Origin: Escherichia coli
Lineage (GTDB): Bacteria > Pseudomonadota > Gammaproteobacteria > Enterobacterales > Enterobacteriaceae
Length of the DNA: 333 nucleotides
Assembly: GCF_003334385.1 (NCBI RefSeq)
Contig: NZ_QOWN01000200.1
Strand: one strand, 5' to 3'
Both the position numbers and the translations under genes were made by a program. Each line of letters starts with the position of its first letter. Positions within the stretch are counted from its first letter, which is position 1. The notes beneath the pieces were generated by a model. The model was not told the DNA's origin, made no database searches, and worked only from the letters and a program-made list of their open reading frames with translations. Positions 1 through 333 of this stretch are shown here, one piece after another.

Positions 1-212
1 CCGGCACGCCAGACCGCAGTCACACCGTGTATCACGGGATTACCGTCCGTGTCCGTCAGCGGGGTTTTGTTCACCAGGATACTCTGCAGTCCCTTCACCG
101 GGCCTTCTATCGGTCCCTCACCAATGGCATCAATCACACTCATCATCTGCGTGGATTTGAGATTATCCTTCGCCTCACGCGGTGTGTGCCCCTTGCCGCC
201 CCCTTTACCCAC
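1..212 (-). CDS. J: Phage host-specificity / central tail fibre (tail tip) protein, lambda gpJ-like; N-terminal 70 codons only, 3' end runs beyond the window
   Basis: Minus-strand translation from GTG at +212..210 gives MGKGGGKGHTPREAKDNLKSTQMMSVIDAIGEGPIEGPVKGLQSILVNKTPLTDTDGNPVIHGVTAVWRA with no stop before the window edge. This closely matches my memory of the lambda gpJ N-terminus (MGKGSSKGHTPREAKDNLKSTQLLSVIDAISEGPIEGPVDGLKSVLLNSTPVLDTEGN...). A purine-rich Shine-Dalgarno sequence lies just upstream. GC is about 59% by hand count. Start choice is by homology; the same frame stays open further upstream but contains no better start. Confidence 0.85.
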   Translation of the reverse strand, partial: MGKGGGKGHTPREAKDNLKSTQMMSVIDAIGEGPIEGPVKGLQSILVNKTPLTDTDGNPVIHGVTAVWRA

Positions 213-216
213 TCTG

Positions 217-228
217 TCCCCCTCTCCT
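217..228 (-). promoter_or_regulatory. Ribosome-binding site (Shine-Dalgarno) for the J-like CDS
   Basis: Minus-strand sequence AGGAGAGGGGGA (AGGAG at +224..228) lies 5-11 nt upstream of the GTG start at +210..212. Confidence 0.5.
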
Positions 229-255
229 GTCTGATGTCTGAATCTGTTTATGCCC

Positions 256-287
256 AAAAAACAACAGGCACCCCGGAGGATGCCTGT
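256..287 (-). terminator. Rho-independent (intrinsic) terminator, minus-strand orientation
   Basis: Minus-strand RNA reads 5'-ACAGGCAUCC-UCCG-GGGUGCCUGU-3': a 10-bp GC-rich stem with one G.U wobble and a tetraloop, followed at once by UGUUUUUU then GGG. On the plus strand the hairpin is preceded by an A-tract and not followed by a T-tract, so it is unidirectional for minus-strand transcripts. Confidence 0.65.
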
Positions 288-333
288 ATCATGACTGAAT
301 AAAAATTCTGAATATCTTCACATTTTCACAAAC

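Follow-up and report, generated by a model that had tools for sequence, protein, structure and literature searches.

The J-proximal end of a lambdoid I-J spacer

The window, by which we mean the whole 333-nt stretch of DNA analyzed here, consists of the start of gene J on the minus strand (212..1) and 121 nt of the spacer that lies between genes I and J in lambdoid prophages. On the minus strand, positions 212..2 translate to VGKGGGKGHTPREAKDNLKST..., the N terminus of a lambda-type tail-tip protein J, and the best matches to the window all carry a gpJ annotation here, in both RefSeq and GenBank. With these annotations and the I-J context, an earlier note's guess that the DNA belonged to a prophage proved correct. 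The window was matched in 1,888 of 5,426 complete E. coli genomes and in 150 phage records, mostly of Stx-converting phages. In annotated relatives, tail-assembly gene I precedes J and an unannotated spacer of about 250 nt separates the two; the I-J gap of lambda is about 60 nt. The features that we distinguish are as follows.

1..212, minus strand: 5' end of gene J (tail-tip/host-specificity protein), GTG start codon at 212..210, translation VGKGGGKGHTPREAKDNLKST...
218..227, minus strand: putative Shine-Dalgarno-like sequence GGAGAGGGGG, read from the sequence, 5 nt upstream of the J start codon
226..243, plus strand: imperfect 18-nt direct repeat, copy 1, CCTGTCTGATGTCTGAAT, partner at 283-300
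255..287, minus strand: intrinsic terminator towards J from a terminator scan, hairpin 287..264 followed by UUGUUUUUU
283..300, plus strand: imperfect 18-nt direct repeat, copy 2, CCTGTATCATGACTGAAT, including most of the first CTGAATA
299..333, plus strand: left end of the pasB cassette (upstream control region), from a homology border at about 299 and a probe match in the extended locus
304..325: CRP-consensus-like 22-mer AATTCTGAATATCTTCACATTT, centered at 314.5, TCTGA-N6-TCACATTT
307..311: left half-site TCTGA, inside the second CTGAATA
318..322: right half-site TCACA, inside the first TTCACA and followed by an invariant TTT (323-325)
325..330, plus strand: second TTCACA, candidate -35 hexamer of promoter P1 (TTCACA-16 nt-TATAAT), with the -10 hexamer outside the window at window-equivalent 347-352

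The terminator at 255-287 folds with -20.9 kcal/mol (z = -4.4). At pair 271/280, C.A in the window corresponds to C-G in most relatives and to T-A in a single locus (L049), which amounts to one compensatory change; prophage contexts of one type (L005) have no minus-strand terminator. The two 18-nt repeats agree at 15 of 18 positions, and 0.7% of Markov resamples do as well (p ~0.007). They flank the terminator, as though a 57-nt unit carrying it had arisen by insertion or duplication.

The DNA to the right of position 299 belongs to pasB

We extended the window through a locus that is 99.4% identical to it (L001). On the plus strand of L001, the TTCACA at window positions 325-330 is followed after 16 nt by TATAAT and, about 100 nt further on, by a GC hairpin and a run of seven T residues (T7), immediately adjoining the gene I stop codon. 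PasB is an sRNA of enteropathogenic E. coli (EPEC) E2348/69 that was identified by RIL-seq and validated by Northern blotting; it is Hfq-dependent, about 83 nt long and encoded on the minus strand at NC_011601 1466343..1466261 (83 nt), between E2348C_1436 and E2348C_1437, and its Northern probe was AATCCCGCAGTGATCGCGGAGCT (PMC8550237; bioRxiv 10.64898/2026.05.13.724894). An exact copy of this probe sequence occurs in L001, on the plus strand of the window, the E2348/69 pasB locus aligns with both the window and L001, and the published 3' end of PasB is the final T of the T7 run. It follows from the probe match and the alignment that the repeats lie in the DNA immediately upstream of pasB. Positions 299-333 are the upstream control region of this gene, at the left end of its cassette; their location and the identity of the downstream gene are matters of observation. 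The RNA begins about 26 to 41 nt past the end of the window, and none of it falls within the 333 nt; its transcription follows the plus strand of the window, leads away from J and is antisense to the tail operon. The minus-strand terminator sits between the pasB promoter and the start of J.

Of 5,426 complete E. coli genomes, 1,649 (30%) carry the pasB cassette (L001 4300-4456), at 2,381 places in all. There was no annotated feature under the cassette match in the 12 records listed, and the cassette has no Rfam family; Rfam covariance models gave no match in the spacer at the gathering score, with sub-threshold chance matches only (E up to 10). A CA-rich stretch had raised the suspicion that the RNA was AgvB. 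That identity was ruled out: AgvB and AsxR occupy a PR' moron site, and their models (RF02702 and RF02703) did not match at the pasB locus. A separate observation concerns phage PhiR12_1, in which a full-length match to sar RNA (RF00262, 69 bits; L003 5753-5819) lies beside an antirepressor gene among the tail genes.

Short direct repeats at the cassette border

The earlier note had described two short direct repeats, CTGAATA at +295-301 and +308-314 and TTCACA at +317-322 and +325-330, and they stand where it placed them; we number the copies 1 and 2 from left to right. A third, partial copy (CTGAAT) is present at 238-243. Direct repeats of at least 7 nt arose in 5.6% of dinucleotide-preserving shuffles of 295-330 and in 14% of those of 288-333, and at least three repeated 6-mers, the number observed, in 2.5% and 8%, respectively. 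Given these rates, and given that the shuffled regions were picked after the repeats had been seen and because of them, the repeat content is not beyond chance. The note had warned that chance was a strong alternative, a caution that was justified for the repeats as such, since 6 to 14% of shuffles equal them.

The four copies differ in their conservation across the eight cassette lineages described below. CTGAATA-1, which straddles the left cassette border, is kept in two of the eight, and T296 is retained in just 13% of copies. Within CTGAATA-2, CTGA alone is invariant across the lineages and contributes to the invariant TCTGA. TTCACA-1 is kept in all eight lineages; TTCACA-2 is kept in two and elsewhere reads TCCGGC, TCCGCA, TTCAGT, TTCTGT, TCTGCA or CTGAAA. 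Conservation of both copies of each repeat in related sequences, as direct-repeat regulator sites would lead one to expect, was therefore not found. The 18-nt repeat pair accounts for CTGAATA-1 and for the partial CTGAAT at 238-243: CTGAATA-1 is outside the pasB cassette and is part of this longer, unrelated duplication. Thus, the suggestion that the repeats were remnants of a short duplication holds for CTGAATA-1, which forms the end of the 15/18 repeat, and fails for the other copies. The suggestion that they were regulator binding sites was right in spirit, in that a conserved operator-like element is present, and wrong in anatomy, in that its arms are inverted and not direct repeats. The repeats themselves are incidental and ordinary, and pasB was already known; the operator and the family relationships reported below are modest new details.

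A family of PasB-like cassettes with a conserved upstream element

Viral contigs were fetched by using the PasB terminator alone, and the loci were then searched with an nhmmer profile of the RNA body only, which left the upstream DNA unselected. The profile replaced a loose pattern, CGCTGCGTTANTNTTTT, whose matches in viral contigs were mostly due to chance. We recovered 151 copies representing 63 distinct PasB-like cassettes (29-118 bits), which fell into eight lineages at 90% identity. Homology ends sharply at about position 299: none of the 22 columns to the left is invariant (mean pairwise identity, 0.24), and to the right the sequence is near-invariant and is shared even where the neighboring DNA is wholly different.

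Every one of the 63 distinct cassettes contains the element TCTGA-N6-TCACA, and its spacing to the downstream elements is fixed in 61 of them; more diverged RefSeq variants with different RNA bodies also retain this element. Across the eight lineages, the half-sites are invariant at 10 of 10 positions (13 of 13 with the TTT flank) and the N6 spacer at 2 of 6. The longest invariant run, of nine columns (permutation p = 0.006), lies under CTGAATA-2 and TTCACA-1. Part of this invariance reflects shared ancestry, as many of the cassettes are recent copies.

Several prophages carry tandem arrays of diverged PasB-like cassettes, with three copies in L096, L105, L117, L118, L104, L127 and L131 and two in L124 and L095. 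Each copy has its own TCTGA-N6-TCACA and terminator, and all are antisense to the tail genes. In L096, the J-adjacent spacer is enlarged to 920 nt (7517-8436) and is bounded on its far side by a 214-amino-acid open reading frame where I is expected; this frame was placed by position alone and not by homology.

The conserved element resembles a CRP site

The conserved element is an imperfect inverted repeat, TCTGA-N6-TCACA, assembled from parts of CTGAATA-2 and TTCACA-1, and its pattern of conservation looks like the footprint of a dimer. The 22-mer AATTCTGAATATCTTCACATTT agrees at all but two positions with AAATGTGAnnnnnnTCACATTT, the consensus for the sugar-sensing regulator CRP, a match that none of 200 window shuffles yielded. 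Compared with AAATGTGA-N6-TCACATTT, it agrees at 13 to 14 of 16 informative positions in all eight lineages, and a 14/16 match was reached by 0.02% (2e-4) of composition-matched spacer resamples; by the same count, the CRP site of lac scores 12/16. The positions that are informative for CRP are invariant at 14 of 16 columns versus 19 of 67 other promoter columns (Fisher p = 2e-5). CRP was chosen after the site had been seen, and the p values for consensus match and conservation are to be read as post hoc. The fit has one odd feature. Where the left half-site TCTGA has C, CRP prefers G (TGTGA), and yet this C never varies, as would be unusual in a CRP site that was drifting.

The site recurs across many prophages, with different neighbors and in tandem copies, and for this reason a host factor is likelier to act here than a phage-specific repressor; we infer that the site would be bound by a factor of the host. 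We consider it probable that positions 299-333 constitute a pasB control region with a CRP-like operator for a dimeric host regulator, most likely cAMP-CRP. The consensus match and the conservation are observed; from them we infer that a protein binds, that it would be CRP and in which direction it would regulate. In the mechanism that we propose, the regulator would bind the imperfect palindrome TCTGA/TCACA together with its A/T flanks, CRP binding would couple pasB transcription to carbon status, and TTCACA-2 (325-330) would be used as a -35 hexamer in the PasB lineage proper only.

Two candidate promoters

A promoter scan of the 333-nt window alone found none. In L001, the scan returned TTCACA-16-TATAAT, an 11/12 match to the sigma-70 consensus (0.3 expected per region), which we call P1; the distance between its hexamers lies within the 16-18 bp of sigma-70 promoters. 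Its start would lie 7 nt after TATAAT and would give an RNA of 98 nt, with the palindrome centered at -44.5. The P1 -10 hexamer is kept as nATAAT in most lineages and the -35 hexamer is lost in six of eight; the family alignment thereby rules out TTCACA-2 as a universal conserved -35 element. The published 5' end of PasB, which is based on RNA-seq coverage and Northern size alone (PMC8550237; bioRxiv 10.64898/2026.05.13.724894), lies 15 nt downstream of the P1 start.

A second candidate, P2, has a -10 hexamer of the form TAnnnT (TAGTGT, TACTTT or TACAGT), in which T, A and T are invariant in the seven lineages compared in register (L049, with a 1-nt indel, was omitted), and a poor -35 hexamer (2/6). 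Transcription from P2 is predicted to begin 1 nt away from the published 5' end, which would place the palindrome center at about -60.5, a lac-like class I geometry minus 1 bp. The distance from TCACA to the P2 -10 hexamer is 40 nt, and the corresponding distance in lacP1 is 41 nt. Measured against the positions from which CRP activates (-41.5, -61.5, -71.5 and so on), the site does not fit P1 (-44.5) and nearly fits P2 (about -60.5); with respect to P1, the stronger promoter, its phase matches neither of the classical CRP classes. In the tabulated RIL-seq data, fragments that have PasB as their 5' partner extend up to 1466344 and not past it, which fits either P2 or a processed P1 transcript. 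Between versions.1 and.2 of the Sakai genome, coordinates shift by somewhere from 97 to 119 nt at 2.19 Mb, from 159 to 187 nt at 3.49 Mb and from 122 to 160 nt at EcOnc22; with the shift known only within these brackets, the EHEC Hfq-CRAC peak is not placeable relative to P1 and P2.

In RNA of the length expected from P1 (L001 4360-4455, plus strand), a 5' U-run is predicted to pair with the CA-rich ACAAAAAC, and the shorter published form leaves ACAAAAAC free. The predicted fold is a hint that removal of the 5' end by trimming could expose part of the PasB RNA.

Alternative explanations

The nearest alternative to CRP is an operator for another dimeric regulator, for instance Cra, FNR or an unknown factor. 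The invariant C of TCTGA, which is not optimal for CRP, would suit such a protein, as would the off-phase position of the site relative to P1; TGAA-N4-TTCA is Cra-like and reaches 10/12 in the lineage of EcOnc22 (an EHEC RNA considered below), and the non-activating culture in which PasB is more abundant was both static and in stationary phase. However, the matches to Cra (7-10/12) and FNR (6-7/10) are weaker than that to CRP and uneven across lineages, and the invariant TCACA and TTT, with the AAA-side flank, are bases read by CRP and not by Cra or FNR. We judge another regulator rather unlikely. In a comparison with consensus sequences by eye, which offers leads only, none of sigma-E, sigma-54, sigma-28, sigma-32, OmpR, CII and LysR-type regulators fitted the invariant bases or the border. 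A simple constitutive sigma-70 promoter that has no regulator of its own, with TTCACA-2 as its -35 hexamer, TATAAT as its -10 hexamer and the palindrome stretch acting like an UP element for the alpha subunit of RNA polymerase, appears unlikely to us. UP elements are A/T tracts situated around -60 to -55, and the conserved A-tract at 299-303 lies at about -60 to -55 from the start of P1, itself an 11/12 consensus match. But this -35 hexamer is lost in six of eight lineages while the palindrome 3 to 18 bp upstream is invariant; the invariant half-sites contain G and C, the spacer between them varies freely, and the invariant positions follow the CRP pattern. Neither the published 5' end nor the RIL-seq fragments reach the P1 start.

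That the repeats are chance occurrences in AT-rich DNA, or functionless leftovers of small duplications, agrees with the 6 to 14% of shuffles that equal them, with the poor conservation of CTGAATA-1 and TTCACA-2 and with the place of CTGAATA-1 in the 15/18 duplication. As an account of the locus it is nevertheless very unlikely, because no other part of the promoter region is as conserved as the sequence under CTGAATA-2 and TTCACA-1 and this stretch lies directly upstream of an experimentally validated sRNA. It is more improbable still, to the point of being nearly negligible, that the conservation serves the minus strand, whether as a small open reading frame or through a signal carried by the mRNA of the late tail operon. 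The late operon must be transcribed through the spacer, and a 32-amino-acid hypothetical protein, covering the promoter and 5' end of pasB, is annotated on the minus strand of phage PhiR12_1 (L003 3318-3416; window-equivalent 318-416). Against this, no frame is open through the site across the eight lineages, a search of 295-333 found no RNA structure (z = +0.5), and the conserved block moves with the plus-strand sRNA into different contexts and tandem arrays. A minus-strand small open reading frame was thus ruled out, and the PhiR12_1 annotation is probably spurious, as no reading frame is conserved.

Expression and physiology

DMEM contains glucose, and Spot 42 (Spf) is repressed by CRP. PasB was more abundant in overnight static LB culture (non-activating conditions) than in exponential DMEM culture, and Spot 42 showed the opposite pattern (PMC8550237; bioRxiv 10.64898/2026.05.13.724894). 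This contrast agrees weakly with activation of PasB by CRP, as growth phase and oxygen also differ between the two cultures. PasB is among the EPEC sRNAs with the most interaction partners, virulence transcripts included, and the published accounts of it make no mention of a promoter, CRP or a mapped start site (PMC8550237; bioRxiv 10.64898/2026.05.13.724894). The control of PasB is thus absent from the publications, and a conserved, testable operator would provide a handle on when prophage sRNAs are made. For genome annotation, the long I-J spacer is to be read as a gene with its own promoter and terminator and not as junk.

Comparison with known systems

The locus studied here and PasB of EPEC E2348/69 are the same: both occupy the I-J spacer on the antisense strand, with an exact probe match and the same terminator. 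The two publications on PasB (Pearl Mizrahi et al. 2021, PMC8550237; Zhu, Shabalina and Storz 2026, bioRxiv 10.64898/2026.05.13.724894) cover the RNA, its partners and its distribution, and the window contributes the upstream DNA.

EcOnc22, EcOnc23 and EcOnc24 of EHEC O157:H7 Sakai are Hfq-dependent RNAs of about 85 nt that are destabilized without Hfq (Tree et al. 2014, PMC4104026). We located them in the I-J spacers of Sp15, Sp14 and Sp11, on the same strand as PasB, and the EcOnc22/23/24 Northern probe is antisense to the PasB-like body in Sakai I-J spacers (Sp15, L226 560-730; Sp14, L227). By position, strand and Northern probe, these RNAs are members of the PasB family; the table entry for PasB in the EPEC paper gives no EHEC homologue (PMC8550237). 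Upstream, they have the same TCTGA-N6-TCACATTT as pasB, whereas their RNA bodies have diverged from PasB and TTCACA-2 is replaced by the palindrome GGCAATTGCC. In the EcOnc22 lineage, this perfect 10-bp palindrome (L226 605-614; window-equivalent ~327-336) sits between the CRP-like site and the -10 hexamer, where it could be a second operator. The operator described here would tie PasB to these EHEC RNAs. We speculate, and consider it possible although short of probable, that PasB, EcOnc22-24 and their diverged relatives make up a single family of sRNA cassettes, each a self-contained unit of a prophage, that share one CRP-type operator, through which lysogens would switch a variable set of regulators according to the carbon status of the host. 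The members of such a family would differ in their target-binding regions and would sometimes stand three in a row between I and J.

The closest parallels for the operator are found in CRP-dependent class I promoters, lacP1 for example, and in sRNA genes that CRP activates, such as cyaR. The site upstream of pasB shares with them the 22-bp TGTGA-N6-TCACA pattern and its A/T flanks, and differs in its left half, which here reads TCTGA. AgvB and AsxR, the anti-sRNAs of Stx prophages, are likewise prophage-borne, Hfq-bound short RNAs of pathogenic E. coli; they are sited at the PR' moron downstream of Q, whereas pasB lies between I and J.
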